Assembly (NCBI GenBank): GCA_015680685.1
Contig: MNCI01001986.1
Coordinates: 1-64,000 of the forward strand
Source of the DNA: Gnetum montanum
Taxonomy: Eukaryota > Plantae > Gnetophyta
Length of the DNA stretch: 64,000 bases
Reading direction: 5' to 3'
Shown here: piece after piece, positions 1,157 to 52,327 of the stretch
Position numbering within the stretch: position 1 is the first letter of the stretch
Layout of the letters: the number at the start of each line of letters is the position of its first letter
Made by a program: the position numbers and the translations under genes
Notes under the pieces: model-generated
Told to the model about the DNA's origin: nothing
Database searches by the model: none
What the model saw: the letters and a program-made list of their open reading frames with translations, nothing else

Positions 1157-1164
1157 CTTAGGAA

Positions 1165-28449: not shown

Positions 28450-29134
28450 AACCTTAATGTTATCTTAGAGGATCTTGGTGATGTCTTAAGCTTGTTGAGG
28501 TTCTAGTGAGAAACTTAATTTTAGTGTTTTCTCCTTACCATTGTGTGTCATGATAGGAACCTCAAATAGAGAGTCCTCAGTAATGTTGCTAGCCTCAAGG
28601 TCAAGGATTTTGACTAGGTTTTCAGGCCACTCTAGAGGTTTCTCTATTAAGGCTATGTGATCTACAAGATTCTCAAGCTCAAGATCTAGGTAATTAAGGT
28701 GAATAATCATAAAACATCACCATGAGGTCCACTTAGGTTCAATGGTAAACTTATTTGCACATTAAGTGGCACATAGGTAAAATTAGTAAATAATGCCAAA
28801 ATGATATAAAATACTCTAGCAACTATGCATAGATTAGTCAAAACATGCTATTTGATGGTCAAATAATTTGGAAATAAGGTTAACAAAGGTTATAAGAGGT
28901 GGACGAAGATAAATAAGATGAACCAAAGGCTACATAAGGCCAAATGATGGGAAGGCTTGGTGGAATGGGGCTAGGTGATGCTCCAATGACAAAAAATGAA
29001 ACTAAGGCCAAATAGTGAAGGTTAACAATCCACAACAAGATCAAATTAAGCCAAAACATAGTGAAACAAGGTCAAATTGATCAAGGTATGAAAAACATGC
29101 TAAAACATGATTAATATTGGTCAACTAGGGTTAG

Positions 29135-29228
29135 ATTTTGCTAGTTTTATGTCTTAGTGGACCATGATGTTGCTAGTTTTAGGCCTTTCTTGTGCCATGA
29201 TGTTGCTAGATTTAGGCCTTAGTAGGAC
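29135..29228. repeat. Short array of the ~33-bp TTGCTAGTTTTAGGCC repeat
   Basis: Three degenerate units homologous to those at 38305-38563 and 44070-44275. Confidence 0.7.
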
Positions 29229-29319
29229 ATGGTGTAGGTCTACAGGGTTGACAAATGAGTTTGGGCACTTGGTGAAGTCATTTGGAGGCTATTTGAAGAA
29301 TAAATTGAACATTTTCTTC

Positions 29320-32300
29320 TCACTACACTTGTCTCAACTAAGGACTATGTTGGCCAGTGTAGTCAAAATAGGCCCTAGCATAGTCAACATTAATAGGTGG
29401 TTTCCTAGGGTCTATTGTGGCCAATTTCGAGTTTTTGATGGTATGTGTGGATGGTGTAGTGGATTAGGATTGAGGATTAGTGCATTTTGACATCATTTTC
29501 ACCCTCCAAAAGCTAGAAATGATGCCAAAATTTGTGACTACGCTAGGACTATGCTAGTTAGCATAGTCTCGGCCTACTCCAACATAGATGCATGCAAGAG
29601 ATGGATTTATGGGATTTCAAAGTTGCTATTGGTGCTCCATCAGCTTCCTAAGGTAGCATAGGGTAGGGGAAAGATTGAATAGGCCATTTGGAAGTAAGAA
29701 AAAAAAAGCTATTGAAAGTGTAGTTGAGAGTTGCTACAGTGTAGGTAGACCAAAAGCTAGGTTTTCCATGGTCGAGCAAGATCAATTGTAGTTAGCTCCA
29801 GGATTTTAGGGTTCTAGTCTTCCAAAATCAAGTTTTTGATCATTCTAAGTGCTATTGTGGTATTAAACCACCTTGGGGTAGGGACTATTCTAAGTCCCTA
29901 GCCTATCCTAGTGTAGATGAAAGGACTTTAGTGTTTTCATGGTCAAAATTAGGTGGAATTATAGCTGGGTAGGTTCAAGTGAGGTTCTTGGCTTTCAAGC
30001 TAGTTTGTTAGTTAAACTTGTCCAAAACCATGACTACACTAGGACTACACTAGAAAGCATAGTCTTGGCCTCTCTTAGCATAGTTTGGATAAGTTTTGAG
30101 CTTTTCATGATCAAACAAGGATAAACTATGGTCATCTTCAAGGTTTCAAGTTTTTTGAACTTTCCAAATCAAATTTTATGCCATTTTGAGTTGTGTAGTA
30201 TCAATCAAACCATCCTAGGATCATGACTATGTTGGGACTACATTGGCTAATATAGTCTAGGATTACCTTAGTGTAGTACCATGTGAGTCCTAAATTTTGG
30301 TGGAGTTTTATGGTTGATCAACTAAGTTTTTATGTTCTTGAGCCATTGGTATTTACAACTAGGGTTTTGACTCAAGATGATCATTTTTGGGTGGTTATAG
30401 TGTTAGCACAACTATTCTAGAGTAAGGATTATGCTGGCCAATGTAGTCCTAGCTTACTCCAGCATATTCACACATAAATCTTGACTTTAGCTAGATTTAC
30501 ATGACTAATCAACCAAGCTTGTGGGTTCTTAGGGGTTATTGGTGTTCTTGGCTAGGGTTTTGGCTTAGGATGGTTGATTCTCGGGCTTGTTTAAGTATTG
30601 AAATGATGATTTTCCATTTGGACTATGCTAGTCAACATGGTTGAGCCTGACCTCAGCATAGATGAGGTAAATTTGACATTTACAAGATCAAAATGAGGTG
30701 GAATCATAGCTAGGTAAGGCCAAATAAGGTTCCTGGTTTTCAAGTTAGGTTCTAGACTATTTGGAGTGTCAACTCACTAGTCAATGCTTCATAGACCAAT
30801 GACTACATTAGGACTACACATGCTAGCATAGCTCTAGCTTCTTCTAGTGTAGTCACAACATGAATCTTTGATTTTGATGAAACTCCATGGTCAATTGACT
30901 TGGTTTTTAAGTTTTTGGATCACTAATTTGAAACCAGGGTTTTAGGCTTGAGATCCAATTTTGATGGTTGTTTGGATGTAAAAATGGTCATATACCATTG
31001 GACTATGCTAGAAAACATAGTTCTAGTGTAGATGTAGGGGGCATGTTGAGTTTTAGCCATTCTTCAACTTAGGTTTTAGGGTTTAGTGGTCTCTAAAGTC
31101 TTTGGCAAGGTTCAGAGTTGAGATGATGCTTCTAGAAGTCGATTTGACATGTTGGTGACCTATGTTGGTGTTTTGGAAGTGGGACTACACTAGGACTATG
31201 CTAAATAGCATAGTTCTAAGCCTCCTCAGTGTAGTCCCAAGGTGAAAATGGGGTTTGGCCTTCCTTTATCTCATAATTTGTCAATGTAAGGTCATGTTTT
31301 AAAGGAGTGTTAGGGATAAAAATGATAGTTTGAAAATTATATTTGATTTTTGATGGTTCATCCTCTTTCTACTATGTTTGGAGTATGCTAGCCAACATAA
31401 TCTTGGCCATAACAGTGTAGTTTGAAGGTTGAAGTAGGAAATTTTCCATTTTTTATTGGTTTTCTTGGGTTTCAAGCTTACCAGAGACTTTGGAATTCAA
31501 GGTGTGTCATTTTGAGGTTATTTTTGATTTTTGATCTTTATTCTTTGCTCAACTACTTTGGGAATACATTTTTTAGCATGGTTGAGGTCTCCCCCAACAT
31601 AATCCATGCAAGGAAAATGAATTTTGATGTCTTTTGATCAATTTTATGGAATTTCAAAGCTACTAGAGGCCCTGGTTAGGGTTTGATGTACGGGTTGGTA
31701 ATTTTGGAGTTAGTTAGGAGTTTGGTTGATGGTAGAGTACACTATTCCACTTGTGACTCTGGTTGCCAACATAGTTAGGCTATTGGTTAGTGTAGTTACT
31801 CCAAAATAGTAGGTTTTGGCCTTCCTTGGTGTCTGGCTTTCATCAATGTCAACACCTTGTTTCTCATTTTGGACATAAGGTTTCATGACATGTATGGATT
31901 GTTGGGAGGGTAGTTTTGGTAGTATTTGGGATTTGGAATGCACTTCAAGACTTTTGGATGCTTAAAACCTAGCGTAGTCACTATGAGAAGCTGAAAACCC
32001 AAGTGCTTTAGGATTTCCATTGGATTATTACATAGGCACATAATGGGATCCACCTTAAATTTGAGTTTTTACACAAATTGATTTTTCACTTACCTAGCAT
32101 AGTTTCACTTTCCAGTTACTATCATGGAGTTTATTTTGACTTGGATGAATGTTTTAGGGAAACCAGGGTTTTGAAGGTAGGCACTAAAGTTTGGGAGTGA
32201 TTTTCTTGTTTTAATTTTGAGATAATTCTTGCCACACTACTCCCATCTTATAGCACATAGCACTAGAGCTCTAATCCTATTTTAGTCTCTACTACACCTA
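29320..32300. repeat. Dispersed array of nested palindromic units GACTACGCT..GACTACGCT..AGCGTAGTC..AGCGTAGTC (CpG-decayed)
   Basis: Units near 29343, 29536, 29880, 30031, 30224, 30426, 30620, 30800, 31000, 31182, 31370, 31735 and 31969, spaced about 150-350 bp apart. Confidence 0.85.
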
Positions 32301-32831
32301 CTTTCAATGTTACGTATCCATCCTACATCCAAAAGAAGGCATAGTTGCTAGATGGCCTCCCAAAAGCTCAAGGATTTTAGTGGTTTTTGCATTGTTTGTT
32401 AGCATGTTGAAGAGGAAGGCTTGAACCAGAAGGAATCCAACCTTGGAGAAGGTTGATGTTGTTGCACAAGGTCTCTCCCACCTCCTATGGCCAATGATTG
32501 TTGAAGGCTCCACTGCTATGACTCCCAGGTACACAAATGCTAACCATTTTATGTAGAACTGCATTGGAATCCTAGACGTTTTTGGTTGTATGGGTTTGTG
32601 TGTTGGGTACATTTGAATTTTAAAAAATTATTACAATAGATTTAGGCTATGTTTATGAGTTTTTGTTCTTGCTTTGGTTATGGAATTGGTGTATATTAAA
32701 TTAAAAATTTATTTCAGTCTTTCCTATGCATTTTTTCTATAGTTTTGGGCAAAAAAGCAACACCACTTTTATAATTTTTTGTATAAAAAAGGTCTATAAA
32801 TTTTAGATTTTATGGACATAGGGTTTTAGTA

Positions 32832-32989
32832 CTATGTTTAATGGTCAAATTGGTTTTTTAAATGGTGAATCCTCTACGAAAAACCCTATGTTTAATGGTC
32901 AAATTGGTTTTTTAAATGGTGAATCCTCTACGAAAAACCCTATGTTTAATGGTCAAATTGGTTTTTTAAATGGTGAATCCTCTACGAAT
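32832..32989. repeat. 54-bp perfect tandem repeat, three copies
   Basis: CTATGTTTAATGGTCAAATTGG..TCCTCTACGAA starts at 32832, 32886 and 32940. Confidence 0.95.
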
Positions 32990-34290: not shown

Positions 34291-37200
34291 GGCCTTTCTC
34301 AAGCCCATCCTAGTGATCATTGACTTGGTGGAGCTACTTTGCTACATCCACGCATTGAGGCTCCACATCCCACCTACACACATGATGTTCAAGCATAGTT
34401 CATTATGGTTTAGACTAGGAGAAAAGGAGTTCCTAGCCTTCCTACTACAAAATTTTAGTGTGATGGTATGGTCACACTTATCATCTCGCACAATGACCCT
34501 CATCATTGAAACCTTGTTGCCTAGATCCTCTAACTTGATTGTCAAGTTTCTTGAAGATAATCCTAAAACATGTAGGCTATCCAAGATTTGGGACATGCCT
34601 AAGTTCAACTTGTATAATACCAACAACACATTGCTAGTTGGTCACTAAGCCCACATTCTATTTCAGAACCCTCCCAGTACTATCTACCATGCTTTAAGCT
34701 TTTATTTTTTTTGCTTATTTTTATTAGATTACTTTTATTTAATGGTTTTTCTTACTTGAATTGGTATGTTTGTAAGTATAGGATGGATGAAAAAGGCTTC
34801 ATCAAAAGTTACCAAATCCTACCCTTAGCTTAAACAACATTAGAGGTCTTTGCCAAAAGCCCCATAGTGAGGCTCATAGTGGTAGAGAAACTCAGAGGTG
34901 ACTTGGGTAGGTACACCATGCATTATTCCAATGCCTGCCAAATGAGTGTAGCCAATGGAATAACACATGGTTTTTGGGATAAATCAGATCTTATCTGCAT
35001 ATCCATTGAGTCCTCCATGCTACTTTCTTCTAGCAAGAAAGGTAAGAATTATTTTTTTTATTTTTGTTTTTGTTTTCATGTCAATGTTTTCATGGTTGCA
35101 TGGTTATGAGTCTTTTAGGCTTTAAGTGTCTAAATGGTTTTATTAGCTTTGATTGGTTGCACTTATATTTTTATTTTACACAATGTGCTTATGTCTAAGC
35201 TAATTGGCTTTTTGTTATGCTGTAGGTGGTAGCACATCCTCCACCATCACATTGGTCATTTTAGGATGCTTTGAGGAGACTCTCACCCTCAGGTATGGTG
35301 AGGTGGATTTGGTGTAGTAGTGTTTGGCTAGTAGGGTGTCTTGAAACATTCAAGTAAACATCACTAAATTAGGTTTGCTTGATCTCTTAATGGTTCCTAG
35401 CCCAACCATCCCTACCCTCCAGATGATGAACATCATTAATTCTTTTGACAAAGAGGTGAAGAAGTTGATCACCTAGGTTCATAGTGTGCCTATCACCGTA
35501 ACATCAATGAGTCCACATTTAGTGACCTCTTTGATGTTTCTTGTGAGGGCCTAAAGATTGTCACTAAAGTAGGTAAAGAGGTGGACCATTAGGAGGAGGT
35601 GCAGGAATTGTTAGACATGCATTGTGATCACAAGGGATTGTTTCTTCACCAATTCAAGGTTGAAGAGGCTAGAGATGCATATCCCTTGTTATGCTCCCAA
35701 GAATTATCTAAGTTGCTATTGTAGGGAAAGATCATGGGTGTTGAGCAAGCATGGACCATGAAGAAGGTTCTTTCAAAGGATTTTCACTTTAATTGGATTA
35801 CTTATTTGGCTTCTAGGCTATGTGGGGATATCCTTAAACTCCATGACAAACTTACGATGAAATGCCACATACATTATGCATTCTTTGCAACGTATCTGAG
35901 GAGATTCCTGGAGTTCTTGGTGGTGAGGAAGGATGGAAAATGAGTAAGCCAAGATCCATCCCAACTCTTCAAGCCATGGGTGAAATAAATTTATCCCACC
36001 ATGTAGCCTGAAAACCAACTAGAGGATGTTAGAGAGTCATTGTATATTACCACTAAGGAACTTAGTGGTAGGTGTTGTGCTTTTCCTAATAGCATGAGGA
36101 TTGAGCTCCAAGTTGAACATGGAAACATTGAAAGGGATAAGACATTACAGGCTGAAGATGAAGGTGAAGCTAGAGCGAAATTGAAGAGGCCCATTGTTGA
36201 GGAAGTAGCACTAGTAATTGAGCAACCCTCCAAGAGGAGATTCATTGTTAGACTCAGCCAAACATGTGATGTGGTTATAGGTATGTTTTAGTTTTTTTTA
36301 TTTTTTAGTTGTTTTTCATTGTTATGTTTTATGTTATAAGGCTATACTTTTAATTTTTTAAAGTAAGATATGTTAAGTTATATTATGTTTTACTCTTGCT
36401 ATTCTTGTACACAAGCAACAAGAGTTAGAAGCCCAAGTAGTAGCAATGAAGGTAGAGCAAAAATGCCTAGTGAAGAAGCTCCTACAATACCATGAAGATG
36501 AGGGGTTATCTAATATTCCATTGGATGGCTTTGACACTATATTTAACCCCTCATAGCTATGCGAACCCCTTTTCATCATCCAAAATGATGCTCCAAGTAT
36601 GTATTACTCTTATGTCATATTTTTGAGTTCTTTTGTTTTAGTTTAAGCATGGGATTAATCATTTGTTGATTATTATTATTGTCATAGTTGTTGAACCTTA
36701 GCCCACTACCTCAACATCCACGTTTCACATGAAATCGTGAGGAGACACTCCTGATAAGAGGGAATTCATGTGGGGGATGGCTAAGGACATGATTGATTGG
36801 TTGCCACAGGTTTCTTCTAATGTTGGCAAGAAATTATCTTGTCCTGAACTTTTAGTTTTTTTGTTTTATAGTTTTATTATTTTAGTTATTATTTTTTGTT
36901 TTTTCTTAGTTATTTGATCATTTATTATTTTTGCATATATCTTTTTATGTTGTTTTCAGCAACTAAGCTTAGATGGGGTCCTAACCGCCCCATTGAGATT
37001 AATGCCCTACCCAACTTACCATAAAATGTGGAGAATGTTTCATGAAAGTTGTATGAAAGTGCCACTAAATGTGAATTTTCATGCACCAAAACTTCATGAA
37101 AAATCCAATTTTTTAATGAGTTTATATGGGAATGAGTTGTATTGTTGGAAAGAGAAAACAAAAAGCTGCTTGAGGCAAATAGGGATCTCAAAGATCGCAA

Positions 37201-37783
37201 GGAATTTGTGGAGGCCCAAGTGGCCAACTGGAGTTCCTTGCAAACTAAAGAGATCAAATGGATGTTGTATTAGAATGCCATCCATGGCAAGGCTACCCTT
37301 GGTAGGAAGGTTACTAAGCAAAAGTTTTAGATGGACTTGCTAGCACGTAAGGCTAGGGAGTGGAGAGACTACTGTGCTTGGGTTCTTAAGTGGGTTTGGG
37401 CATAGAAAGACCACAAAAGAAAATATAAGGTTGAACGTGAAGCCTATATTAAGTGGTTAAAGGAGAAGTCCATTGAATGGTGCAAGTTAGAGCTTTTCAT
37501 GAAGGGGATTCAAGCCAAGGACATGTTCAAACTATTTGAAGGCTTTGTGACTGTTGTTGATTCCCCATCCCCTCAGGTCTCTACCACTTCTGGGGAGATG
37601 ACTACTGGGATGTTTTCAAGGGAACTACCTACATGGATTGACATTGAAAAAAGTAACGTCTTGATAGGTATTAATCTTGGGGAGGTGGACTAGGTCCACA
37701 TGATCAAGGAACAAATCCTTCATCATTTGGAGGTTAGTCTTTGGAATCTCTTACTAGAAGATGTTGCACCCAAGCCCTCCTAG
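34291..37783 (+). pseudogene. Decayed spliced retrotransposon-borne gene: FCP1/NIF-like domain + env-like/plant-mobile-type domain + coiled coil
   Basis: Exon-like blocks between T-rich introns (~34291-34695, 34782-35041, 35226-36280, ~36410-36596, 36688-~36830, 36960-37783). First block: LVIIDLVELLC..WFRLGEKEFLAFLLQNFSVMVWS..LSKIWD..YNTNNTLLVGH*AHILFQNPPST. Third block: KLGLLDLLMVP..NIINSFD..INESTFSDLF..FNWITYLASRL. In-frame stops are present. Confidence 0.7.
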
Positions 37784-38304
37784 GTTTGCTTATTTTATTT
37801 GTTCTAGCATATTTTAGTTTAATTTATGGTTTGGAATTCATTTTCATACTTTGTTGATTATTGGTTAAACTTGTGTTTTGTTGTGATACAAGTATTGAGT
37901 GATGCTAATAGCCCTAGTGGTGAAGACAGAAGTACTCCTCAATCCTCTCTAGCAACCCCTTAGTATCATCTATTGGTCATTGCCTTTCATTATCTCATTT
38001 GTTATGTTGATGTTTGATGTCATGATATATTGGCTAGTGTTAGCCATTTGATTAGTTGATGGATACTTTATTGTTTCATACATTGTTTAGAAGTTTGTCA
38101 AACTATGTGAGAAACATTTAGACTATTATCATTTTTTAATTTTAATTTCATTTATATGTTTTAATGTTTAATAGTTTTGTTCATATCATAGACTATGTTG
38201 GTTAACTTATGTGATTGTGATTGGTTATAAAAAGGTGAAATTGACTATATGTTGGCTACTAGGAATGTGAACTTGGTCATAAATTGTAATAAATGTTTTT
38301 TTTC

Positions 38305-38563
38305 CAATTTTAGGCCATGGTGGGGCATACGATTTGCTAGTTTTAGACCATGGTAGGCTGTTCGATGTTTTGCTAGTTTTAGGCCATGGCGAGCCATGTG
38401 ATGCTTTGCCAGTTTTAGGCCATCGTAGGTCGTGTGATGTTTGCTAGTTTTAGGCCATGTTGGGCCATGCGATTTGCCAATTTTAGATCATGATGGGCCT
38501 TAATGTATCCAATTTTAGGCCTTAGTGGGCCAAATAATTTGCTAATCTTAGGCCATGATGGAT
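38305..38563. repeat. ~33-bp tandem repeat array (left half, split by the L1)
   Basis: Units such as TTTTAGGCCATGGTGGGCCATGTGATTTGCTAG. Confidence 0.9.
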
Positions 38564-38705
38564 NNNNNNNNNNNNNNNNNNNNNNNNNNNNNNNNNNNNN
38601 NNNNNNNNNNNNNNNNNNNNNNNNNNNNNNNNNNNNNNNNNNNNNNNNNNNNNNNNNNNNNNNNNNNNNNNNNNNNNNNNNNNNNNNNNNNNNNNNNNNN
38701 NNNNN
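38564..38705. other. Assembly gap (N run), probably covering the L1 3' end/poly-A
   Basis: N characters. Confidence 0.95.
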
Positions 38706-41700
38706 AGGAAAGGAGGAAGAGAAACCGTGTTGACTAAGACTATTATATAGAAAGCATGTTAAAATTAGCATTCCACAGGGTGTGGAAATGCATTCCAGAG
38801 GTCAGCCATTCACTGAAATGTGTGTATCTTTTCCAGGATGTGGATTGTCGAATGAGAACAAAGGTGGAAGAAAGAAGAAAAAGGCCAAATGGTGTAGAAA
38901 ACTGTGGCTTAATTAGGAGACTTTCTTCTGAAGTGAGGCTTGATGATGGTGATTATTTGGATCTTCGATATGAATCCATGGCTGCAATAAGAAAAACATC
39001 TGGTTAGTATTCATCTTGAATTTTGGGGCTTGAGATATAATTTGGAAGTGAACATGCCGAAGAATTTGCATTTTTTCCGAAGTAGTTAGTTGTAAGGAGT
39101 TTGAAATAATTGTCTTTTGAAAAAGTGTGGTACATCTACATTTCCAAATATTATATAAGATGATGGGCCTAAGGATCTTCCATAGGAAATGAGAGTTTTT
39201 GGACTTGATAGGTAGGAAACCAAACATTACGGCCTCTTGTGTAAAAGTGCATGAGGGAAAAACCTTAGAAGCCCATTTCCAAGCATGCTGAGCAAATGGG
39301 CAAAGACAAAAAACATGGACAAAGGTTTCAGGGTCATTACATAAAGGGCACTTAGGGGAGTGAATCCCAAGGTATGCTAAACGTTTCCCGATTGGGAGAC
39401 CTTGATGAAGAAAACACCAAAGGAATTGTTGAATTTTGGGAAGAGTTGGGAGATGCCAAATTTGGTTGAAAAGAGAGATCCAAAAATCCTCAGATTCTTG
39501 TTTATTCCAAGATCGATTACAGTGTAGAATGAGTTCAGAAGAATCGTGTAATAATTGGAAGGGAACATGTGGCTGATAAGGAAAATTTTTTGACCCATTA
39601 GACCAANNNNNNNNNNNNNNNNNNNNNNNNNNNNNNNNNNNNNNNNNNNNNNNNNNNNNNNNNNNNNNNNNNNNNNNNNNNNNNNNNNNNNNNNNNNNNN
39701 NNNNNNNNNNNNNNNNNNNNNNNNNNNNNNNNNNNNNNNNNNNNNNNNNNNNNNNNNNNNNNNNNNNNNNNNNNNNNNNNNNNNNNNNNNNNNNNNNNNN
39801 NNNNNNNNNNNNNNNNNNNNNNNNNNNNNNNNNNNNNNNNNNNNNNNNNNNNNNNNNNNNNNNNNNNNNNNNNNNNNNNNNNNNNNNNNNNNNNNNNNNN
39901 NNNNNNNNNNNNNNNNNNNNNNNNNNNNNNNNNNNNNNNNNNNNNNNNNNNNNNNNNNNNNNNNNNNNNNNNNNNNNNNNNNNNNNNNNNNNNNNNNNNN
40001 NNNNNNNNNNNNNNNNNNNNNNNNNNNNNNNNNNNNNNNNNNNNNNNNNNNNNNNNNNNNNNNNNNNNNNNNNNNNNNNNNNNNNNNNNNNNNNNNNNNN
40101 NNNNNNNNNNNNNNNNNNNNNNNNNNNNNNNNNNNNNNNNNNNNNNNNNNNNNNNNNNNNNNNNNNNNNNNNNNNNNNNNNNNNNNNNNNNNNNNNNNNN
40201 NNNNNNNNNNNNNNNNNNNNNNNNNNNNNNNNNNNNNNNNNNNNNNNNNNNNNNNTTGCACTTTTTAGTTTTCTTACGAATACGAGAGATAACTAGCTCC
40301 CACAGTGTAGAAGTAGGACCACGAAATTGAAAAGGGATTCCCAAGAGCTTCATGATCTCATGGTCTTGGATTAATTTCCATGGATAGGTGGGGAGTTTAC
40401 TATAATTGTTATGAAAACTATATACAGAAGATTTAGACCAGTTAATGGTAGAACCAGAGAGAGAACAATATTGCTCTACTTGGGCTAAAAGTCGTTTAAC
40501 ATTATCAGTTGTATTTTGGATTAGAAAAAAAGAGTCATCAGCAAAATGCATATTAAGCAGTTGATGTTGAGGAGAGGAAAAGCACACTCCATATAGCATC
40601 CCTGATTGAATATCATGGTTAATTTGATGGCAAAGGAAATCTGTAGTAATGATAAAGAGATAAGGGGCAAGAGGACAACCTTGTCTTATTGATCTATGTA
40701 TTGCAAAGGGGGCGGTGATGCCAAAGGTGGTGGCTATTCTCGCATTAGCATCAGAGAAGAGACATTTCACCATATGAAGATACTTGGAGCCAAAACCTAG
40801 TTTTGACATAGTTTGAAGGATAAAGTCCCACTTAATGTTGTCGTAGGCCTTAGCATAGTCCAATTTCATCAAAAGGATGTCTTGGCCATCATCCTCAGCC
40901 CACTGCAACCCTTCCCAAGCAGTCACTACATTATCTAAGATATAACGCCCTAGGACAAATTCGGTTTGTTGAGGGGATATAATTCTATGAAGGAATTTTT
41001 TCAAATGTAAGGCTAAGCAGTTGGCCCAAATTTTGTATACCACATTAAGAAGAGTAATGGGTTGCCAATTAGCTATACTAGTAGGGTCTCCTGATTTGGG
41101 AAGGAGGCGAATAATCCCAAGATTTAAATTTGGTCCAAGAGACCCCCCCTGGATAGCCTCTTTAATTACTTGGAAAAGGTCATGGCCAACAAGATTCCAA
41201 TGCCTCTGAAAAAACTCAACAGGGAAACCATCATATCCAGGAGCTTTCCCAGAGCTGAGTTTGAAACAAGCATGTTGAAGCTCTTCTTGAGTGATATTAG
41301 CATCGAGGATGTGAGACATGGATGAGTCAACTAACCTAGGATAGTTACGCGTAGTGGTCTTAAATGATGAGAGATTCATTGGGGAAGCTATAAACAAGGC
41401 TTCAAAGTGCTCCTTAAGGTAAGAGAGTATACTATCATGATCAGTGATAATAACACCATCCCTAGAGAGAGTATCTGGGGATGGAATGAAAGGAGAGCTG
41501 TTAAGATATTTAAAAAATTCCTTACATTGCTCATCTTGAATCTTCAACCAAGTAAGTCTACTTTTGATTAAGGCACTGTGGGCCTTCTGGACTTCCCAAT
41601 ATTGGAAAGTGGAGTGAACTTTAGCAAGTTCTTCATGAATGTGGGTATTAAAGGGTTCTATGGATAACCTTTCCATAAGATTATTAATAGTTGAAGAAAT

Positions 41701-44065
41701 GTTGTTGTATTCTTGTCTAGAACGAGAGGCCACTTCCTTGCCGAACTTCTGAGCAAAGTTCCTCACCCTACTAGTGGTTCGCAGCCACCATTGGATCCAA
41801 CCCACCTGACCTATGGGCCTAGGTTCGGCATTCCAAAGATTAGAAAGAAGTTGTTGAGACGAAGGAGAAGAGAATAAATTAGAGTGTAGGCGAAAGAGGT
41901 GGAGTTTGGTCCTATGTGAAGTACCAGAGATTTGCATGGAAATGACGATGGGATAATGGTCAGATAACGTAGCCTGTTGGTGGACCGTAGTGGTGGAGAT
42001 TGCCTGCTAAAAGGATAGTGTGGAGAAGTAAAATCGATCTAGCCGACTATATATTCGAGCCTGACCCCATCATGGAGATAAAATTGTTTTTTAAAATCAG
42101 ACTAAGGTTGAAATTCATGAGGAGGAAGTCGAAAAGGGACTCCCCCAAGTTTATCTTGAGGGAATTCAATCATATTAAAATCTCTGCCAAAAATCCAAGG
42201 AACGGAAGGAAGAGAATAGGTTAGTTCTTGCCGCCATAAGTTAGCCCGTTTCATGGAGTCATTTGGAGCATAAATAGAGCAAACCCCAAAGGGTCCATGG
42301 GAGGAGGAAAAGATAGCCCAAGAAACTCTTTGGCTTGAATCGGAACCAGAATGGATGAGTTTGTCTTTCCAATAGGCTGAAATGAGAATAGTTGCTCCAC
42401 CTTTTCCATCCATGTGGGAGGTAGCTATGACTGAGGAGTGGGGAAGAAACCTATGAGCTGAAAACTCTAAGTTAGAAGCTAAAATTTTAATTACCTGAAG
42501 AAGGAGGAAATTAAAGGTGGTATTCATACTAGAGAGAAAATTGCTAGCCCTTTTACCTCAAAGCCTATCTGTGAGGCCATGAACATTCCAAGATACTAAA
42601 TTCATGAGGAGGTAGAAGATGTGGGTAGGGAAATAACTTCAGAGGATTTGAGGGTTGATGTGTCCACTTCCATTATGTTGGAGAGGACAATAGAGGGGTT
42701 GTTTATAATAACTGGAACTATAGAAGAGGCTATATGGGAGGGAGATAATGGTGGGTCAGAAAAGGAGGATGGTTTAGCTCTTTTCCTGCCCCCATCATTC
42801 ACTCCCTCAGTGGTTGAAATAGAGTCCTTGAAAGATTTAGACTGGGTGACTTTAGCTTGCGAAGTGATCTTTATAGGGGAGCTAGAATGAGGGACTTGTG
42901 TGGTAGAGGATTTAGGTTTGGAGAGAAAACTAGAGGTCTTGTAGGGAGTGGCTGCAAATTTAAATGTTTTCAGTAGGACTTGACTTTCATCTATAGGGGA
43001 AGAAAGATTTTGTGAAGGGTTGTTTGCATTTTTCTTCCTAGCTAAGGAAGGGCAGGCCAAGATGTGGTGATCAGCTTGATGACAATAGCTACAGGAGTTT
43101 GGAAGGTAAAAATAATCAACTTTTTGTGTGAACAATTTTCCGCTAGCCGCTAATGTGAGAGAGGTTTTCTTGTGAGAGATGTCTAGTTCTATACAGTAGC
43201 GACGAAACTGAATTCCATTAACCTCTACTTCGTGATCAGAGATAATGTGACCTAGGGTACTGACAATGTCTCTCTCAAAGGTGGAAAAAATAAGTGGAAG
43301 ATTAGGTAACTCCACATAACAGGGGATAGTTTTATAGGCTGGGTCAATGACATTGAAGTCAAATTTCCATGGACGGACGACCAGGGTGGCATTTCATGCT
43401 GGGAAAAAATAGGCTGAAAGGGATTTCTTGACATGAGAAGCATCAGAGAGTTCTACGAGCACAAAGTTTCGGGCATAATATCGGGCATAGGAAACGGTTA
43501 TGCCGTGAGATTGTAGAATAGATTTGATGTACAAATTGAGATTTACTAATCAGGGAATAAAACCCATAATTTGAATAAAAATGAACCGAGATGAAAATTC
43601 TTCAGCTACATTATCAAAAAGATCGTCCAAAATAAAAAAAATCAATATTAGTGGAGTTGGGGGGACTTCCTTGCTGAGAAGAACCAGACGGGCCTTGAGA
43701 TTCATCCATGACTGCACTATAGCAAAGATCTTCTCTGCTAACAGCGCAGCCCTACGTAGATCCTGGATCAGAAGCACCGGTGAACCCGTTGACACCAAAC
43801 CACCACTAAACCTGTTGATGCCAAAATGCCACTGGTCCGCCCAATGATGTGAAAAAAAATCTCAGAAATCTGAACTTAATGGTGGCGATCCCGGATCTAC
43901 GACACCCTCGACTCAGATCTGTCAGGCTAGTTCAGCAAAATAAGACCAATTGGCTGCTAGGGAACCACAGTAACGTAGATTTGGGATTGTAGCAACAAGC
44001 AACAGCTTGCATCAACACAGATCTGCAAGCGTAGCCATGCAGATGCAGAAGGAAAAAATTTTCAA
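38706..44065 (-). mobile_element. L1-clade LINE, near full length (ORF1 ~43800-42602 with CCHC knuckle; ORF2 from 42605 with APE, RT and zf-RVT), few disabling mutations
   Basis: ORF1 CSYCHQADHHILAC. ORF2 MNLVSWNVHGL, SIYAPND, DFNMIE, SRLDRFY, SDHYPI, KAPGYDGFP, WQPITLLN, KLDYAKAYD, RQGCPLAPYLF, HFADD. C-terminal CPLCNDPETFVHVFCLCPFA at ~39290-39360. About 560 aa of RT region is open. Confidence 0.95.
39607..40255. other. Assembly gap (N run) inside L1 ORF2
   Basis: N characters. Confidence 0.95.
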
Positions 44066-44069
44066 ATAG

Positions 44070-44275
44070 TCAATTTACCAGTTTTAGGCCATGGCAAGCC
44101 ATGTGATTTGCTAATTTTAGGCTATGGTGGGCCCTATGTTTTGCTAGTTTTAGGCCATGGTAGGCTCCATGATTTGCTAGTTTTAAGCCATGGTGGGCCA
44201 TGTAATTTACTAGTTTTAGGTCATTGCGGGTCCTACATTTTGCCAATTTTAGATCATGGTAGGTCCTACATTTTA
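44070..44275. repeat. ~33-bp tandem repeat array (right half)
   Basis: Same unit as 38305-38563. Confidence 0.9.
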
Positions 44276-45329
44276 AAAAGAAACTTTTTATCATATTTTT
44301 CATATTTTATGTTCTAAAATAAAAAGACATAAAAGGAAAATTTTAAATGAAAAAAAATCTTAGGCTATGCTTGATGAAATGGTTAAGAAAAGTAAAATAA
44401 AAGTAAATAAAACAGTGCATACAAGTAACGTGTAAACTAGACTAAAAGGCTATAGCAAAAGAAGGCCACATAGTTATAGGTACAAGGGTGAGCAAATTAA
44501 GGGCATACATTAATTATGCAAGTGCTTCCTAATCTTTCATAGATTAGGAAACATGTACAGTCTGCTTTGCACAATTTTGTATTCCCCATTTCCTTTGCTC
44601 ACAACATTGAAGTGGAGCTCTTCCCATGATGCATTCATGGATCCATCATTGTTGGTTTAGGCCTCTTGTGCTCTATTGAAATTCTTAGCTTTGTGGTTAA
44701 TAGTAGGGATTTCTTCCTAAAACTCCACTTCAAACCCTTGTTCCATGTCAACATTGTTGACTACCATCATGGATGATTAATTAAAGGTTTTAGCATACAT
44801 ACAATTGATTATTAATTAAAAAGATTAAGTTTTTCAACATTCTTACCCTTATAATACCTTCTGGGTGATAGTAATTTTAAAAATTGGCACAAGTTTTCCA
44901 CATAAGCACCCATTCCAGCTAAATTGAACACTCCAGGATCAAATAGGTTCAAAAACCATGGAAATCAGAGTGGTAGGGAGTTAGATAACATGTATGGAAG
45001 TTGGATGCACATAGCTCTTAGCTGATAGAAAAAAATGCAAAAGATCCCTTAGCTACAATTGATGAAAATGATTTCTAAAGAACCATGAAAGTTATGTTTA
45101 TGGTTTTTGTTGGACCTAATATCAAACATCCAATATTGACTGTGAGTATGTGTGTGTGTTGTTGCGGCGTGCGGTTGTGAGAAATGTAACGATTGCGTTG
45201 TATGTAAACTACAAATGACTTACTTTAAAGAGATTCAGCCAACTTTGCAAGTACTGTGAGTTATTGAAAATTTCCTATTTTGTTCAACTACCTAGTCTAT
45301 GCGGTCCTTATAATACCTACTTGTAACAA

Positions 45330-48300
45330 ATAAAATTTTTCAAAAACATTTGAGCACAACTCCGCAATCTACTCCTAATTTTCCCCAGAGAAAGAGATAG
45401 TTCCTCCCTCATAAGGCAGGTGAATTTCTTGGTGGATTAGTGAGGAAAAAACTTGTAATTGAGCTTGCCAAGGCCTTCCCAAGATAAGGTTATCCTTATG
45501 TGTCTTATACCATCAAGAAATTGGCTTATGGGGAATTGTTCCCTTGCCACAAAGTCTAAACAAATGGATCCTTTTACAACAACCCAAGATTTGTTGAAGG
45601 ATTTAAGAGTGGTTTTTGAAGTATGTTACATATGCTCAATTAGGCTTAAACATTCTATGATGGTATAAGATATTATGTTAGTTGTGGTTCCATTATCAAC
45701 ATGTACCCTATGCACTCTGTACTATCCCGCCCTTATGGTTATGAAGAGGAAAGCCTTAAGTATCTTGCCATCTTGGGGGTTGGTCTTGGCTTTGCTATCG
45801 TAAAACACTAGTGTTGTTGGTCTTGTTTCTTCCTTTGATTAAGATAGTACATGTTGACATTTTGGTATGTCAAAATGTTAAGGAAAATGGACTACAAGGA
45901 TGTTTCTATGGTTTTTGTACTTACAGGAGCATGAAAAAAGGAATTAAGGACTCAAGGGAGCATGGACGAATACAAAGAATTTAGGTAAAATATGTCTATT
46001 TTTGTTGAGAATGACTCCTAGATGTCTTAGCATGTTTTAAAGTGTTTTTGTCTGATTTTGATGAGTTTAGAAGGTTATAAGATTTGTGGGGACTTATTTG
46101 AAGGCATCCAAAGGCTCCCAACATCAAAACAAGTAGTTTCATTTTTGGCCCCTGCAGAAGAGACATCTTTTCCATACCAAAGATGCCTTTCTAGTAGGTA
46201 GCACAAGCATAGATGTCTCTGCAAAATAGAAGATGTCTTTCATAAGATAAAGATTTCCTTCTCTAGACAAAGATGTCTCATAGAATGCAAGCTATATTTA
46301 AAAAGATGTCTCCCATTATACAAGGACATCTTTTTGAAATAAATATGTCTTCCTAGAATAGAAGGAAAATTCAGAAAGATGTCTTAGGCACAAAGAAGAT
46401 GTCTTCCATAATTGTTAGTGACTATTGGCTAGTTTTTGCATGAGTTCCAAGATGGATTTAGAAACATAGTAGCTATAAGAAGACTAGATGTGCATTGGAA
46501 AGAGTGCAAGCCTTATTATATTAAATGTATAATCATTTGTAATTATTGAATTCACTATTTCTCCTCATTATCTTATGTACAAATCTGATGTACCTAACTG
46601 TACAAGGATAAGAAAATTGAGTTGCAATTATCCCTTATAATTCTTGTTCTTATTGCCCTATAGGATTGATATGCTTGAGCTTGTCAAGATCTTATGGGAT
46701 TGAGTTGTTGGTGCTATGGTACAATAATTTGGTGTGGAGCTTAAGATTGTAAAGGTTGTGAAAGCCTTGAAACCACATTTTGAAGCCTAATGAGACCTTG
46801 CAAGGTTGAGTGATTGGTGATATGGTACAATACTCCAGAGTGGGGCTTGAAGGCTATACAGGGTGTGAACCCTTCAATCACATTTTGAGAGCAACAAAGT
46901 CTAGAGGTATATTAGTGATTTACCATTCAAGTGTGGACTACCAAAGTTGGGAAACCATGTTAAATTTTGTATGTGTGCTTTTGTGTTATAAATTTTTAAT
47001 TTGGAAAAATTTTTCATCCCCCCCTCCTTCTAAGTTCAATTATCCACATTTTCATCACTACATGGATGTACTCTTCACTAGTAGGAATGTCCTCACTAAT
47101 AGGAATAGAGGTCAACATCTTGATTAATGCTTCACAGTGCATAATGGATGTCATCACAAGGTCATATAGGCTAAGGTAGGTTTTTTTATTTTAGTGACTA
47201 CTTGACCTATTCCATCGTAGTGAGGAAGTCCTTGTCATTGGTTTTAGGATTCTCTTTCTTAGTATTCTTGACTTCCTCCATGCATCCTAGGATGTGAACT
47301 TCATGTTTTAATGATTGGGTTTTGGCTTCTTTTCCCTTCCCTTGTGGCTTAGGATCCCCTTGTGGTTGACTAGTTGAGGTAGCCTAAGCATGAGAGCTCA
47401 TTAGAATAAATGAGGTGGGAGTGGGCTTCTGCGGACTTTTGCAGGTCCACTTTCTTTCATGCCTTGGCTTGTTTTTTGTCATTGTTCTCAAGCTTTGGTG
47501 TGGACTTCTTGCATTTTTTTCTTGGGGATTTCTTCTTGTTGTTGGTTGATTATGAAGAAGCTATTACATTGGCCACTATGAGAGGACATTTTTTAGTGGT
47601 AGAGGTCATTTTGGCTTTAGTGAAAGGGGGCACCTTGATCACAAAAGGATCCTTGGAAGGCATAGGTGATGGAACCCTTACAAAAAAGGGGATCTTAAGC
47701 CAGTTGAAGTTGAAGGGCCCCTATTGTTACGAGGAGGTACACGAATCTTGAATGGCTCCTATGTAGGTTTAGAGTTGTTGGTCACATTGAATGCCACGAT
47801 AGTGTATGAGCTATTGTTAGTGTTGAATGGGTTGTTGTAGACCTACATGGATTTATTTTATGGTTTGACTAGGTTGGAGGCATCAAGGACTAGTTTACCC
47901 TTATCTATCATCTTTTGCAGCCCATCCTTTAGTGCTAGGAAAAACTTAGTGTCATAACTTGGGAGTTGATGGTAGTGGTAGGAATGGTCAAGATTGAAGC
48001 ATTTAGGCACCAGTGGATCATCCTTGGTTACAAGAGTGGGGGTTTTGGATATATCACATAGCATATTGTGCTTCTGATAGGCATTTTTAGTCATTTGTTT
48101 TTATTATATTCTTCCACTCCTCAGCAACTAATCAAGGAGTTCTGATGGTTTTAGTAACCTAGTATACTTTGACCAATCTTTTCATTTAAAGTTAGGCCTT
48201 GTAGTAGGTGATATAGAGGAAGGCTGATTGTTGTTAGCAGGAATCTTAGTTTGGTTTGCTTTGGGTCCCCTACGTGATTGTCTTGTTGCTCACTATGGTC

Positions 48301-49900
48301 ACAATTACATTATTTTGCCTCCCCTTATTCATATCCTATAGTATGTGCTAGTTCTTATATGCCATGTAGGTAGGGTCATGGATAGCCTCAACTGTGTCCT
48401 CTATGTTCTTTATTTAGGAAAAGTCTTGGCTGAGTGATTGAGGATCTAGGTAGTGCAGTTTTGACTTAATGAAGTCATTAATCATCCCCTTGAATATAAT
48501 GAGAAGGTGACTCTTAGCTATCGGTTCTAGAATCTCATTAAGAAGATGATTCCATTGTTTTATAAACTTCTATATTGGCTCAAGGTGTCCCTGCTTGACC
48601 TTCATTAATTGGTTAAGAGTCATGTTGGATTTCAAGTTGTACTTGAAACTATTAATAAATTATGAAATTAAGTCTTCAAGTGAGGATATGGATCCTCTTA
48701 GTAGCACGCAATACTAGTCCAAGGATTTTCTAGTAAGGAACATAGGGAAAATTTGCATTATGATATGTGGCTAGGCTTGGAATAGTAGATACTCAAAATA
48801 GAAGGTAATCAAGTGGGAATTAGGGTTACCTTCACCATTGTACTTGGTGAATTAAGGAATGGGGGTGCCCAGTGGAAGAGTTGTTGGTGGGATTGCAAGA
48901 ATGATTGGGTCATCCTGATAGAAATTCATTATCTTCACAATCTATGTTGTAGAGGCTTTGAGCTTTTGTAACCCTTCCATAAAGTCTTGAAGAATTTTGA
49001 ATGCTTGATTCAATCCCTAGGGCATTCCCATGAGTTGTAGTATTTGTATGAATGGTTGGGATATTAATTGAGAAGCTTATTACCTTACAATGGCTTGTGG
49101 TATAGAAGGGAAAGGTTGGGTGTAGTGTTCATAGGTGGGCTAAATAGTGAAAATGATGTTTGTGCTAGCACTTGAGAGTCATGAAGGGGACAAATAGTAT
49201 ATGTGTCCCCTGGGTCACTTATGGTCCCACTATGGGACCTACCAATACAGAGAAGGGATGAGTGATGGTGAGAATCATTGGTGAGCATTGTGCAAACTGA
49301 GGTTATTTGGCAAAAGGTATGGAAGAAAATAGGGAACTTGTTTGAGGCATAAGTTGTGCTAGGTGCATTGCTATAATTAGTGTAGTCCCAAACATCATGG
49401 GATATATAGGAGATGATAGTTGATATGTCTATCCCATGGAAGAGACAGGCTAGGACAAAGTGGCTACAATAATTTGAGGGGATAATTTTTGGAATAGGCT
49501 CCCTTTGAAGTTGTTTGGTTTAGGCTCTACCTTGAACTCATCATGCTCTTCATGTTGGCCCTTCAGACTGAGCTTTTCACTCCATTTGTCTATCTTAATT
49601 AATTAAGAAATTATATGTGCTTGAGTATTAGTAAGTAGTATCTTGTCATAGGAAGAGGGTATGTACTCTTTTCCATTATGATGAATTAACTTGTACTCAT
49701 GCTTATTCTTAGCTTGTATGCGTGGAAGGAGTAATCCAACTTGGATCTTGGTGTAGATATAGTTGTAGTGTTCTTCATTGAGTACAATAAAATATGGGCT
49801 TTTCTCTCTTTGTTTAAGTGATTATCTAGACTTAGCCATAGTGGGGTCTCTTGGATCATAGTTTCTCACTCCATCTTGATCGGATGTCATGTTGATGCTA
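45330..49900 (-). pseudogene. Decayed Tat/Ogre-type gag + aspartic protease, interrupted by a solo LTR
   Basis: Minus-strand LPLGTPIP*FTKYNGEGNPNSHL (48811-48880), SISSLEDLIS*FINSF..LMKVKQG, HYHQLPSYDT..ALKDGLQKMIDKGKL, YLSLYDLVMTSIMHCEALIK, and protease-like RVHVDNGTTTNII (~45680-45720). Confidence 0.8.
45852..47057 (+). mobile_element. Sirevirus-like (copia) solo LTR
   Basis: TGTTG...CATCA termini with a near-TSD GTACA/CTACA. Excision restores the gag-PR frame (..EEYIHVLS*SKEETRPTTLVFYDS). The 5' end matches the LTR at 59665 (TGTTGAC..TATGTCAAAA..TTAAG). Contains AGATGTCT/AGACATCT repeated motifs and a TTCATCCCCCCCT motif near the 3' end. Confidence 0.88.
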
Positions 49901-51199: not shown

Positions 51200-52327
51200 T
51201 GTAATTCAAGCACTTAAGGTTGCAAAAGGCTATTGATTCCAAAGGTTCGAAATGCAAAATATTTTTGAAACTTAACAAGAAAATCATTGGAACATAAGTA
51301 ATGTATTTGAGTTTAGCTTTTATAGATTTTAGGTTGCTGATTTTGGGCTACAAATCTCTACCATGATTGCTAACAGATTGATGTTGATTGTAGGTGTAGT
51401 AGGCTATTATCCTAGCATGGTAAATCATTTATGGAAAGTTTTGAAACACAAAGCCATCAAAATCCATTTTCATACTCAAAATAGTAAATGGACTATGCTT
51501 CACCCCAACTATGTTGGCCTTGAAGGACTACACTAGCATTATTGGAATCTATTGGAAATATGGTGACTACACTGGCCATGTGAAGGTTACTGGAAATCCA
51601 TGATGATTAGATTGGCCATTATACCACTACTAGAAACTATCATGACTACGCTGGTTATTGCTAGGAAAACCCAACAACTCAAATGTTGGATGTGTGCAGC
51701 TACACTGGGTTTTATGGTGACTACACTAGGTTTTGCTAGAAAATTCAAAACACAACACCATATACACTAGAAGTAGGTGGTTCTAGCGTACTTGAGGCTA
51801 TACTCCCACAAAAATCCATGAAAATAAAAAATTGGGTAATACCCAAGGCATTTTTAGCCTTCCCAAGCCCATACATAGATATAATACAACTTTTTCCACT
51901 TGGGAAGTGAGGTAGTAGAAATTTATGAGGCATTTCTCAATCCCAAAAATTTAAATTATGTAAGATTGCAAATCAAGGGATACAAACCTTATATTTACAA
52001 TAAGATATTACCTTAAGTTAAGTGATGAAGGTTACAACTTATAACATGCATTTTCTTGGTGGTGTTTCATAAACTACATTTTGAGCTTGTTAGAACCTTG
52101 CAAGGTTGAGTGGTTTCGTAGTGTCAAAACACTTTGGAGTGGAGCTCATAGCTTGTAAAGGGAGTGGTGAAGAAAAAAAGTCCAGAGTTGTGCACGGATT
52201 TTACCCTCAAAGTGTGGACATACCCAAGTTGGGGAACCATGTAAAATTTGGTGTGTTTTTGTGGTTGGTCTATTTTTAATTAGGGATCTTATTCAAACTT
52301 CCTTCTAAGTTCTGGATCCTCATATCA
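51200..52327. mobile_element. LTR-like sequence (TGTAA...TATCA) adjoining the minus-strand PBS-like site; right ~270 bp homologous to the Sirevirus-like LTR 3' end
   Basis: GACTACACT/GACTACGCT motifs at 51490-51830. 52060-52322 aligns to 46770-47045 and to the reverse complement of 58540-58780. Confidence 0.6.

Follow-up and report, generated by a model that had tools for sequence, protein, structure and literature searches.

The window analysed here, a 64,000-nucleotide stretch of Gnetum montanum DNA, carries on its plus strand a decayed gene of at least seven exons, one of which, E1 (34291..34696), appears to encode a NIF/FCP1-like HAD domain. The gene begins at about 32341, 5' of the block delimited in the preliminary description, the coordinates of which were too narrow. 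An upstream exon overlooked at that stage (E0, 32341..32528, 5' end approximate) ends in a GT donor whose phase suits the NIF exon and had no match in Pfam. E1 is followed by E2 (34782..35041), the large middle exon E3 (35226..36280; nine stops and one frameshift near 35545-35563), E4 (36423..36596; a second candidate acceptor, 36416, does not keep the phase), E5 (36688..36809; nor does its alternative, 36702), E6 (36960..37783; a frameshift near 37121-37139 precedes a predicted coiled-coil stretch) and a possible last exon, E7 (37893..37965), whose phase does not fit the S/P-rich frame tested; all lie on the plus strand. Blocks that look exonic (T 25-31%, GC 40-47%) are interspersed with T-rich blocks resembling introns (T 45-61%). 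Five of the seven junctions are in frame with GT-AG borders, two of the five only with the second of two acceptors, and the E6-E7 junction is out of phase. Stops account for 2.1% of the codons in the gene frames against 9.0% in the other plus-strand frames, a low rate that was favoured by the choice of the frames by eye. The 1006 codons contain 21 stops, and two frameshifts interrupt them; this copy is dead, as had been stated before.

The middle domain had been taken for an env-like or plant mobile domain (PMD). Profile searches of the middle exons (E<=1 or E<=10) gave no match to PF10536, PF20167 or PF03078, whereas a similarly decayed ORF at 60700-61500, serving as positive control, matched PF20167 with E=8e-4; that identity is thus left without support. 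The middle ORF and the control ORF had no pairwise similarity (845 of 1000 shuffles scored as high). The middle and C-terminal exons gave no match to Transposase_28 (PF04195) at E<=1 or E<=10 either; for all four families, decay may hide a distant relation. An env-like ORF lies in sense orientation after pol and has a transmembrane segment; the gene is antisense to its likely parent gag, and the highest 19-residue hydropathy outside the NIF core was 1.27, with no convincing transmembrane segment. Since the PMD/env identity of the second domain is unsupported, so is the analogy to MAIN/MAIL and PP7L that had been drawn. The phosphatase domain of MAIL3 has a fold other than NIF. According to excerpts of PMC5418596, MAIL3 (PMD plus serine/threonine phosphatase domain) and MAIN/MAIL1 are examples of a transposon-related domain joined to a phosphatase-type domain, but MAIL3 is a host gene, and no PMD was detected in the gene studied here.

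The coiled coil described earlier stands as a stretch in E6 predicted by a crude heptad score only. With a stop-free part of E6, the ESM Atlas yielded nothing beyond leads below 0.9 at low recognition, and the single-sequence model built for part of E3 (pLDDT 35) could not be used. The sole full HMMER match of the second half of E3 (P0001, E=4.5e-4) is a repetitive TPR-type protein and was rejected as chance. Also rejected was the outcome of a metagenome scan, in which 347 pattern matches came down to three loci with one insertion-sequence transposase, presumably IS630-like, matched on an 8-residue word.

Contigs 80-85% alike to the gene were found in four organisms, and contigs with 53-99 differences per 310-550 bases cross its exon-intron borders. 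Summed contig depth, which is no copy number, was 1635-2608 in the NIF bin (four runs, four organisms), whereas contigs matching this copy summed to 7-13. Exon-rich bins were deeper than intron-rich bins. The block is not single-copy, and the gene is multicopy as cargo of a mobile family should be; the earlier view of a spliced gene of mobile-element type is upheld. In two poly(A) runs, RNA depth over 32.2-38.2 kb stayed at 0-0.44 per bin and strand, and the joints listed (15 of 1565) include no junction of the gene. In run X11, the many reads at 36.2-37.5 kb stem from poly-T loose ends and do not reflect expression.

The NIF/FCP1-like exon and the host NIF gene

The similarity of E1 to NIF proteins claimed in the preliminary description was recovered in each of several comparisons. 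Pfam PF03031 matched the block with E=2.7e-4 and 21.1 bits (curated cut-off 21.8), a profile built from 32 plant and algal NIF domains found E1 in the six frames of the window at E=5.6e-7, and 29 of 30 matches in the ESM Atlas were NIF (top 0.91). Against the spliced host NIF protein, the block was 26% identical over 157 columns with a local score of 89, while shuffles scored 27+-4 and none of 2000 as high; the motif pairs cited between the two are present in the sequence. On these sequence comparisons, we regard the distant NIF/FCP1-like similarity as genuine. A PDB sequence search with the block gave nothing under E=0.4, and a word-index search gave no match among 121 longer and 7 near-length candidates. 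The predicted fold of E1 (pLDDT 77, pTM 0.68) is of the HAD-type alpha/beta class and its top structural matches all belong to the FCP/SCP family, the model being closest to the group of CTDNEP1, SCP1, FCP1, UBLCP1 and TIM50 (E 4e-4 to 1e-2); this assignment is partly circular because the model was built on an alignment of NIF proteins. The C-terminal third of the NIF domain was not detected in E1 or E2, and E2 was rejected as its continuation (score -1.7; 203 of the 291 reported shuffles, out of 500, were as high).

E1 resembles uncharacterised plant FCP1-homology/NIF proteins (among them P0005 of Cryptomeria, P0009 of Taxus, P0015 of Riccia and the host gene of the window) in a pattern comprising the motif I D, R, F, V-W-S, L-x-K-x-W, N-T-L-L and N-P. 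It differs from them in its identity of 17-29%, in having no introns in common and in lacking the F-x-W..Q..C and F-L-K-E segments and the D-D-S-P-Y-K motif. Active FCP/SCP phosphatases carry D-x-D-x-T/V as motif I. This is absent from E1, in which motif I reads D-L-V-E, the host family itself having D-V/L-N-G. Motif IV of E1 is V-G-H followed by a stop, against I-D-D in the plant family, and 15 of 37 nearly invariant NIF positions are kept, both counts coming from one decayed copy. Since this copy is devoid of the motif IV aspartates, a pseudophosphatase is the likeliest reading of the E1 product, judged from losses known in one decayed copy. The link to the Pol II CTD proposed earlier is unsupported because CTDNEP1, SCP1 and TIM50 score alike, with Pol II CTD enzymes not favoured over CTDNEP1 and TIM50, and because catalytic residues are missing in this copy.

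The host NIF gene (4742..11137, plus strand, six exons, 447 aa) is intact, lies outside the element and was used for comparison only. The preliminary description had E1 captured from the mRNA of this gene. E1 is 29.3% identical to the host protein and 17-28.5% to 31 other NIF proteins, and in the NIF tree (32 rows; P0021 was excluded as too short) the NIF exon has a branch length of 6.76 and a placement not fixed by the tree; capture from this particular mRNA is thus unsupported. The block was also said to run uninterrupted across host introns 1-4, which holds for introns 1-3 (after aa 44, 72 and 94), while intron 4 (after aa 156) is passed by only about three residues. The missing introns, the marginally nearest position of the host protein among the 32 (29.3% vs 28.5%) and a sister position that was not rejected (p-AU 0.087) would fit a local processed pseudogene or a decayed duplicate of the gene at 4.7-11.1 kb. 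Nevertheless, no DNA similarity to the host gene was found (longest local match 20 bases), the block sits within an unrelated multi-exon gene, and a multicopy family with contigs 80-85% alike in four organisms is no local processed pseudogene; we consider this origin the most improbable of those weighed here.

Another question is whether the NIF exon was ever translated together with the exons downstream. At the 3' end of E1, 34677 is the sole GT donor and fits the phase of neither acceptor tested; only a GC at 34691 would be in phase, so that neither the GT-AG link to the next exon nor the in-frame fusion asserted earlier is supported at this end. One contig skips 33966-34864, namely the entire NIF exon, many conserved residues are lost, and in gymnosperms transposons very commonly capture fragments of genes (excerpts of PMC13477047). 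The block could then be a passenger of the element, as a captured fragment or a skipped exon never co-translated with the rest. On the other hand, the E1 acceptor is strong and in phase with E0, E1 contains a single stop in its 135 codons, compared with 10 and 13 for the other frames, and the NIF exon is covered as deeply as the other exons. The NIF protein pattern survives without DNA similarity to the host gene, in keeping with long selection on the protein. We hold a passenger improbable.

The gag-protease region, arrays and motif clusters around the gene

The gene is flanked by tandem arrays of the same 33-bp unit on the plus strand. The left copy (29130..29235) has 3.2 units; the central array (38300-44270) is split into a left part (38300..38561, then an N gap at 38564-38705) and a right part (44073..44268) by a younger LINE on the minus strand (38706..44060, ends approximate), which is outside the family and has relatives transcribed in poly(A) RNA. 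Beyond the array, a decayed aspartic-protease-like region (45300..45780, minus strand) has V-D-N-G and L-G-R-P-W motifs but no Pfam match, and is presumably of the Tat/Ogre type. An inserted LTR-like repeat of another, higher-copy family, presumably copia-like (45850..47053, plus strand, ends approximate), separates it from a decayed gag with its gag-protease linker (47054..49500, minus strand). The latter matched Retrotrans_gag with E=0.15 only, gave nothing under E=0.4 in a PDB sequence search and is assumed from its motifs to be of the Tat/Ogre type. Its gag-like frame (about 48450-48930) is on the strand opposite to the gene, in agreement with the antisense orientation described earlier. 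Upstream of the gene, degenerate 200-600 bp repeats (29340..31980), a candidate regulatory region, contain 11 copies of GACTAYRCTRG, often as direct-plus-inverted pairs, and four exact copies form a second cluster upstream of gag (51490..51730); the motif occurs only in these two upstream regions, with 15 copies in total against 0.08 expected.

Copy class, methylation-type decay and the common 11-bp motif tie the gene to the opposite-strand gag-protease at 49.5-45.3 kb and not to the Athila-like element at 20-29 kb, a link we infer since no LTR pair or pol was found. In the same run, depth was 640-7300 at 47.5-51.5 kb and 255-2400 over the gene. CpG/CHG observed/expected ratios are 0.12/0.30 in the gene, 0.07/0.25 upstream of it and 0.08/0.32 in gag, against 0.28/0.55 in the Athila-like element and 0.29/0.72 in the LINE. 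Searches with blastn and nhmmer found no LTR pair, primer binding site or target-site duplication around the unit, this copy being old and broken by insertions. No pol with RT, additional RNase H and integrase was seen on the minus strand from the protease to 20 kb, the only pol in that interval being on the plus strand and of another copy class, and no contig spans the gene plus gag. Of the earlier claim that the gene is borne by a retrotransposon, the orientation opposite to gag and the multicopy state thus stand, while an LTR pair, a target-site duplication and a pol were not found. We consider it likely that the gene and gag belong to one element.

Two other assignments of the gene were weighed. 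Being on the same strand as the Athila-like pol (23-26.4 kb) and downstream of it, the gene could be a sense 3' extra ORF of that element in the env-like position, and sense extra ORFs are known from Athila, one with a host-enzyme-like domain (excerpts of PMC6317226 Additional file 4). Depth, however, drops about 100-fold at about 28.8-29.4 kb in four of four runs, the decay of the gene differs from that of the Athila-like element, and no convincing transmembrane segment was found outside the NIF core. A sense gene in a retroelement, moreover, tends to lose its introns. This assignment is very unlikely. Less so, albeit still unlikely, is a separate mobile unit of similar age that has the 33-bp arrays as its borders (about 29.1-44.3 kb), includes the gene and merely adjoins the gag-protease; it might be a DNA transposon, a Helitron-like element or a helper module. 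The identical unit on either side of the gene and the lack of LTRs and pol would suit it, and DNA transposons do have multi-exon accessory genes with motif arrays, such as VANC of VANDAL (excerpts of PMC5735166). Yet the arrays are direct and not inverted, copies of the 11-bp motif also lie upstream of gag, beyond the interval between the arrays, decay and depth match those of gag, and a look at the frames of 28.9-38.5 kb, with 29-32 kb covered only by frames free of stops, revealed neither a transposase nor a helicase.

Possible origin and role of the gene

We therefore lean towards a dead, spliced, multicopy gene that is likely a backward-facing accessory gene of the adjoining gag-protease element and whose product would likely have employed the NIF fold as a non-catalytic binding module in regulating that element. 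The adjoining element is likely a Tat/Ogre-type LTR retrotransposon, and the gene likely a dead variant of the accessory genes of that type. A single element would later have been broken by the LINE, LTR and Athila-like insertions, with pol missing here. A promoter belonging to the gene would have lain within the motif-rich region (29.3-32.3 kb), and its introns would have been kept because reverse transcription acts on an RNA in which an antisense gene goes unspliced. The NIF exon would derive from a cellular NIF gene long ago, probably via mRNA. These three steps jointly appear reasonably probable. That the product was a single fusion protein of about 1000 aa has slightly more in its favour than against it. 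Rather doubtful is the role of a pseudophosphatase adaptor acting in trans on transcription or silencing of the element, possibly via the clustered 11-bp sites. We would mention only as a speculation an ancient, pol-less or split Tat-type family whose 7-8-exon antisense gene encoded a protein of about 1000 aa (NIF/FCP1 pseudophosphatase, unclassified domain and coiled coil) that bound the paired 11-bp sites upstream of its own gene and of gag and docked phosphorylated host transcription or silencing factors; it would be a retrotransposon counterpart of VANC-type anti-silencing made from a host phosphatase fold.

Retand and Ogre typically carry extra ORFs in antisense along with tandem arrays (excerpts of PMC11963269 and PMC6317226), and both features are present here downstream of gag, if the gene and gag are one element. 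According to the same excerpts, the extra ORFs of Retand/Ogre (eORF-3'R; Transposase_28 PF04195, PMD PF10536) likewise form a backward gene downstream of gag with tandem arrays in the same interval, some have coiled-coil (Smc-like) parts, and non-autonomous members exist. The gene described here differs in having no PF04195 or PF10536 match, in following the gag-protease directly with no pol between, and in its at least six introns, the excerpted Retand/Ogre surveys having sought plain long ORFs. It also has a NIF exon, and NIF is absent from the excerpt of PMC6317226 Additional file 4 (domains in at least 5 elements, E<=1e-10). The same excerpt lists a lysine-decarboxylase-like domain (pfam03641, 95 elements) in a 3' sense ORF of Athila. 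It is another host-enzyme-like domain fixed as cargo in the Ogre/Tat/Athila group, but differs from the present gene in orientation, fold and lineage. VANC anti-silencing proteins of VANDAL combine an element-encoded accessory protein with family-specific short tandem motifs in non-coding regions (excerpts of PMC5735166). They provide an analogy only, as they belong to a DNA transposon and no sequence relation to the gene was seen. No NIF-carrying LTR family was found in the literature searched, and the element table/FASTA of PMC6317226, Repbase and subscription papers may bear on novelty; the terms 'NIF' and 'phosphatase' are absent from PMC11963269, PMC13477047, PMC13317346, PMC13547354 and five supplements of PMC6317226.

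The value of the finding is limited in that the family looks old and silent and the fusion is putative. If the cargo is real, the large number of introns would account for such genes being overlooked in surveys based on ORFs. The motif clusters common to the gene and gag are a testable target for the role of the protein. Most antisense extra genes of plant Ty3/gypsy elements have no cellular counterpart (excerpts of a review, PMC7264820). A family-wide NIF/FCP1 exon would give one of them a traceable host origin.

A spliced gene with a NIF-like exon

The decayed gene at 32341–37965 (+ strand) consists of alternating blocks with distinct compositions (25–31% T and 40–47% GC versus 45–61% T). 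Its exons are E0 (32341–32528), E1 or the NIF exon (34291–34696), E2 (34782–35041), E3 (35226–36280), E4 (36423–36596), E5 (36688–36809), E6 (36960–37783), and possibly a last one, E7 (37893–37965). Stops occupied 21 of the 1006 codons (2.1%) in the chosen frames and 9.0% of those in the remaining plus-strand frames, albeit the choice of frames by eye favors this contrast. Five of the seven junctions were GT-AG and in frame: E0–E1, E2–E3, and E5–E6 with obvious splice sites, E3–E4 and E4–E5 only if the second of two candidate acceptors was used. The E6–E7 junction was out of frame, and E3 and E6 contained one frameshift each. Between the NIF exon and E2, the sole GT donor was out of phase and no site other than a GC would keep the frame, so the GT-AG link drawn there by the preliminary description was not recovered. 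Altogether, a spliced gene, as had been described for 34291–37783, is well supported, albeit with ~1000 codons and a start upstream of that interval; that NIF was fused to the remaining exons is plausible. The first intron carries an exact 54-bp tandem triplication (32832–32988) in an otherwise decayed gene, either recent or an assembly artefact. One contig of sequencing run X1 skipped 33966–34864, including the entire NIF exon, and possibly represents a NIF-less family variant.

The 6 exons of the host NIF gene in the window (4742–11137, +) splice cleanly, and the encoded protein has 447 aa; the introns follow aa 44, 72, 94, 156, and 177. The proposed NIF similarity of 34292–34696 was borne out. 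The block aligned with aa 3–159 of the host protein at 26% identity with a local score of 89 (shuffles, 27 ± 4; 0/2000 as high), and a profile of the host protein and 31 relatives matched it at E = 5.6e-7. NIF was the sole Pfam family matched (E = 2.7e-4; 21.1 bits with a cut-off of 21.8), and 29 of 30 Atlas neighbors were NIF clusters. At the DNA level, just a 20-base match was left. We regard the domain assignment as sound, albeit distant. The block was said to run uninterrupted over host introns 1–4; this stands for introns 1–3, and intron 4 was passed by just ~3 residues. In a tree, the NIF exon had a branch length of 6.76, and a sister position to the host was neither supported nor rejected (p-AU 0.087); its identity was 29% to the host protein and 17–28.5% to other NIF proteins.

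The last host exon bears a near-perfect, in-frame 297-bp tandem duplication (99 aa; 10461–11054), genuine or an assembly artefact. Decayed LINE copies, presumably of RTE type, lie at 1225–3857, 5854–6146, and 8282–9133, two of them within the 4.6-kb third intron. Elsewhere, an intact-looking host gene at 14688–16541 (+) reads as F-box/LRR in translation, and tandem duplications of 57, 92, 50, and 141 bp, exact or near-exact, surround a copia RNase H-like fragment (18996–19800, −), possibly as assembly artefacts. GC- and CpG-rich LTR-like sequences with internal 105-bp repeats form inverted copies, ~90% alike, at 423–1166 and 57177–58111.

Copies and expression

The stretch was present whole or in part in 10 runs from 6 coded organisms and 4 studies. 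Summed contig depth, which does not equal copy number, was 1635–2608 over the NIF bin in four runs, and contigs matching this copy had depths of 7–13. The diverged contigs listed, five of them from the run of the organism that also gave the best-matching runs, differed at 53–99 positions per 310–550 bases, covered exons, and crossed exon-intron borders. The gene is thus multicopy rather than single-copy, and the plain reading is tens to hundreds of diverged copies in a family predating the split of these organisms. Depth in exon-rich bins was about double that in intron-rich bins (1944, 2418, and 1895 versus 890, 1191, 1181, and 932 in X1), which fits slower divergence of the coding parts; the same pattern would arise from poorer alignment of AT-rich introns.

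In two poly(A) runs, of which ~1/4 each was covered, depth over 32.2–38.2 kb was 0–0.44 per bin and strand at the required 80% likeness to this decayed copy, by which diverged active copies could be missed. No RNA junction lay over the gene among the 15 joints listed of 1565. High counts in a third run were poly-T artefacts. Most of the LINE at 38706–44060 (−), with an 802-codon open stretch (N gap included), had a depth of about 30–110 in the two poly(A) runs, and its close relatives were well represented in poly(A) RNA in both mate directions.

The probable carrier element and the remaining domains

Two candidate elements flank the gene. The first is a plus-strand gag-pol at 21–26.4 kb (RNase H, E = 5e-27; integrase, E = 2e-5), which we take to be Athila-like. 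Its depth of ~100,000 fell ~100-fold near 28.8–29.4 kb in all four runs, and its CpG/CHG observed/expected ratios (0.28/0.55) were less depleted than those of the gene (0.12/0.30), marking it as a separate, younger insertion. The second, on the minus strand from ~49.5 to 45.3 kb, comprises gag, which reached only E = 0.15 with Pfam, and a region resembling a protease; an LTR-like repeat from another family separates the two. We assume the motifs of this second element to be of Tat/Ogre type. The depth (640–7300) and CpG/CHG (0.08/0.32) of this gag resemble those of the gene. The window contains 15 instances of the motif GACTAYRCTRG (0.08 expected); 11 of them lie upstream of the NIF gene and the other 4 upstream of gag, frequently arranged as a direct pair and then an inverted copy. 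A 33-bp array between the NIF gene and gag is split by a younger LINE, and a short copy lies left of the gene; contigs joined both halves without the LINE, weak evidence inside a repeat. Neither an LTR pair nor a target-site duplication nor a matching pol was found around the unit. As pol and LTRs are missing, Tat/Ogre membership is not established; the gene would have worked like an accessory gene of such an element. Splicing leaves the introns of an antisense gene in place in the RNA that undergoes reverse transcription, and the retention of at least six introns fits this position.

The motif clusters at 29340–31980 and 51490–51730 look like candidate sites at which a dimeric DNA-binding protein would bind. 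Immediately beyond the protease-like region, summed depth at 44854–45519 (centre ~45250–45400) reached 295,000, versus 4,100 and 12,200 on its sides, with some RNA in run X11; this is a short sequence common to a very abundant family and may be a signal conserved behind gag-protease or else a small insertion.

The env-like/plant-mobile (PMD) label of the middle domain found no support, since neither E3 nor E6 matched the PMD, Transposase_32, Athila ORF1, or Transposase_28 profiles and no good transmembrane segment was found. A comparably decayed ORF at 60700–61500 (−) did match PF20167 (Transposase_32; E = 8e-4), and E3 showed no pairwise likeness to it. The sole match of the second half of E3 among 1.84 billion representatives (HMMER) was dismissed as chance, and a single-sequence structure model of part of E3 was unusable. 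The described coiled coil was predicted in E6 from a crude heptad score only. The 60700–61500 ORF lies directly downstream of a copia-type gag (63232–63693) with no pol between, likely a non-autonomous gag plus env-like element.

Catalytic residues and possible function

Of the 37 positions that are nearly invariant in the family, the NIF exon retains 15. It has the first aspartate (motif I) and the W-S of motif II. Its motif I reads D-L-V-E (D-V/L-N-G in the plant family), V-G-H stands where the family has I-D-D, and the F-L-K-E segment is absent. Changing two D codons to G and H requires more than the surrounding C-to-T/G-to-A decay; judged from the sequence, the catalytic aspartates were thus probably lost before this copy died. 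The structure model, itself alignment-driven, matched CTDNEP1, SCP1, and TIM50 about equally, which together with the family D-V/L-N-G gives no specific pointer to Pol II CTD dephosphorylation.

In sum, the window contains a genuine mobile-element gene that is spliced, multicopy, and dead and that includes a NIF-like exon. Retand and Ogre are known to carry antisense extra ORFs together with tandem arrays (PMC11963269 and PMC6317226), which, if the gene and the gag form one element, share orientation and arrays with it; the domains listed for such ORFs include PMD, Transposase_28, and Smc-like, and in Athila a lysine-decarboxylase-like domain, NIF being absent (PMC6317226 Additional file 4). 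We found no NIF-bearing LTR family in the largely open-access literature covered. Both the presence of PMD in gypsy elements and the fusion in MAIL3 have been published (PMC5418596); no PMD was detected in this gene, which leaves the analogy without that half. Further analogies are the DNA-binding or regulatory roles proposed for Retand antisense proteins (PMC11963269) and VANC of VANDAL transposons with its tandem target motifs (PMC5735166). By such analogy, our preferred, albeit low-confidence, reading is that the NIF fold would have served as a non-catalytic binding module of an accessory protein acting in trans on its own element.
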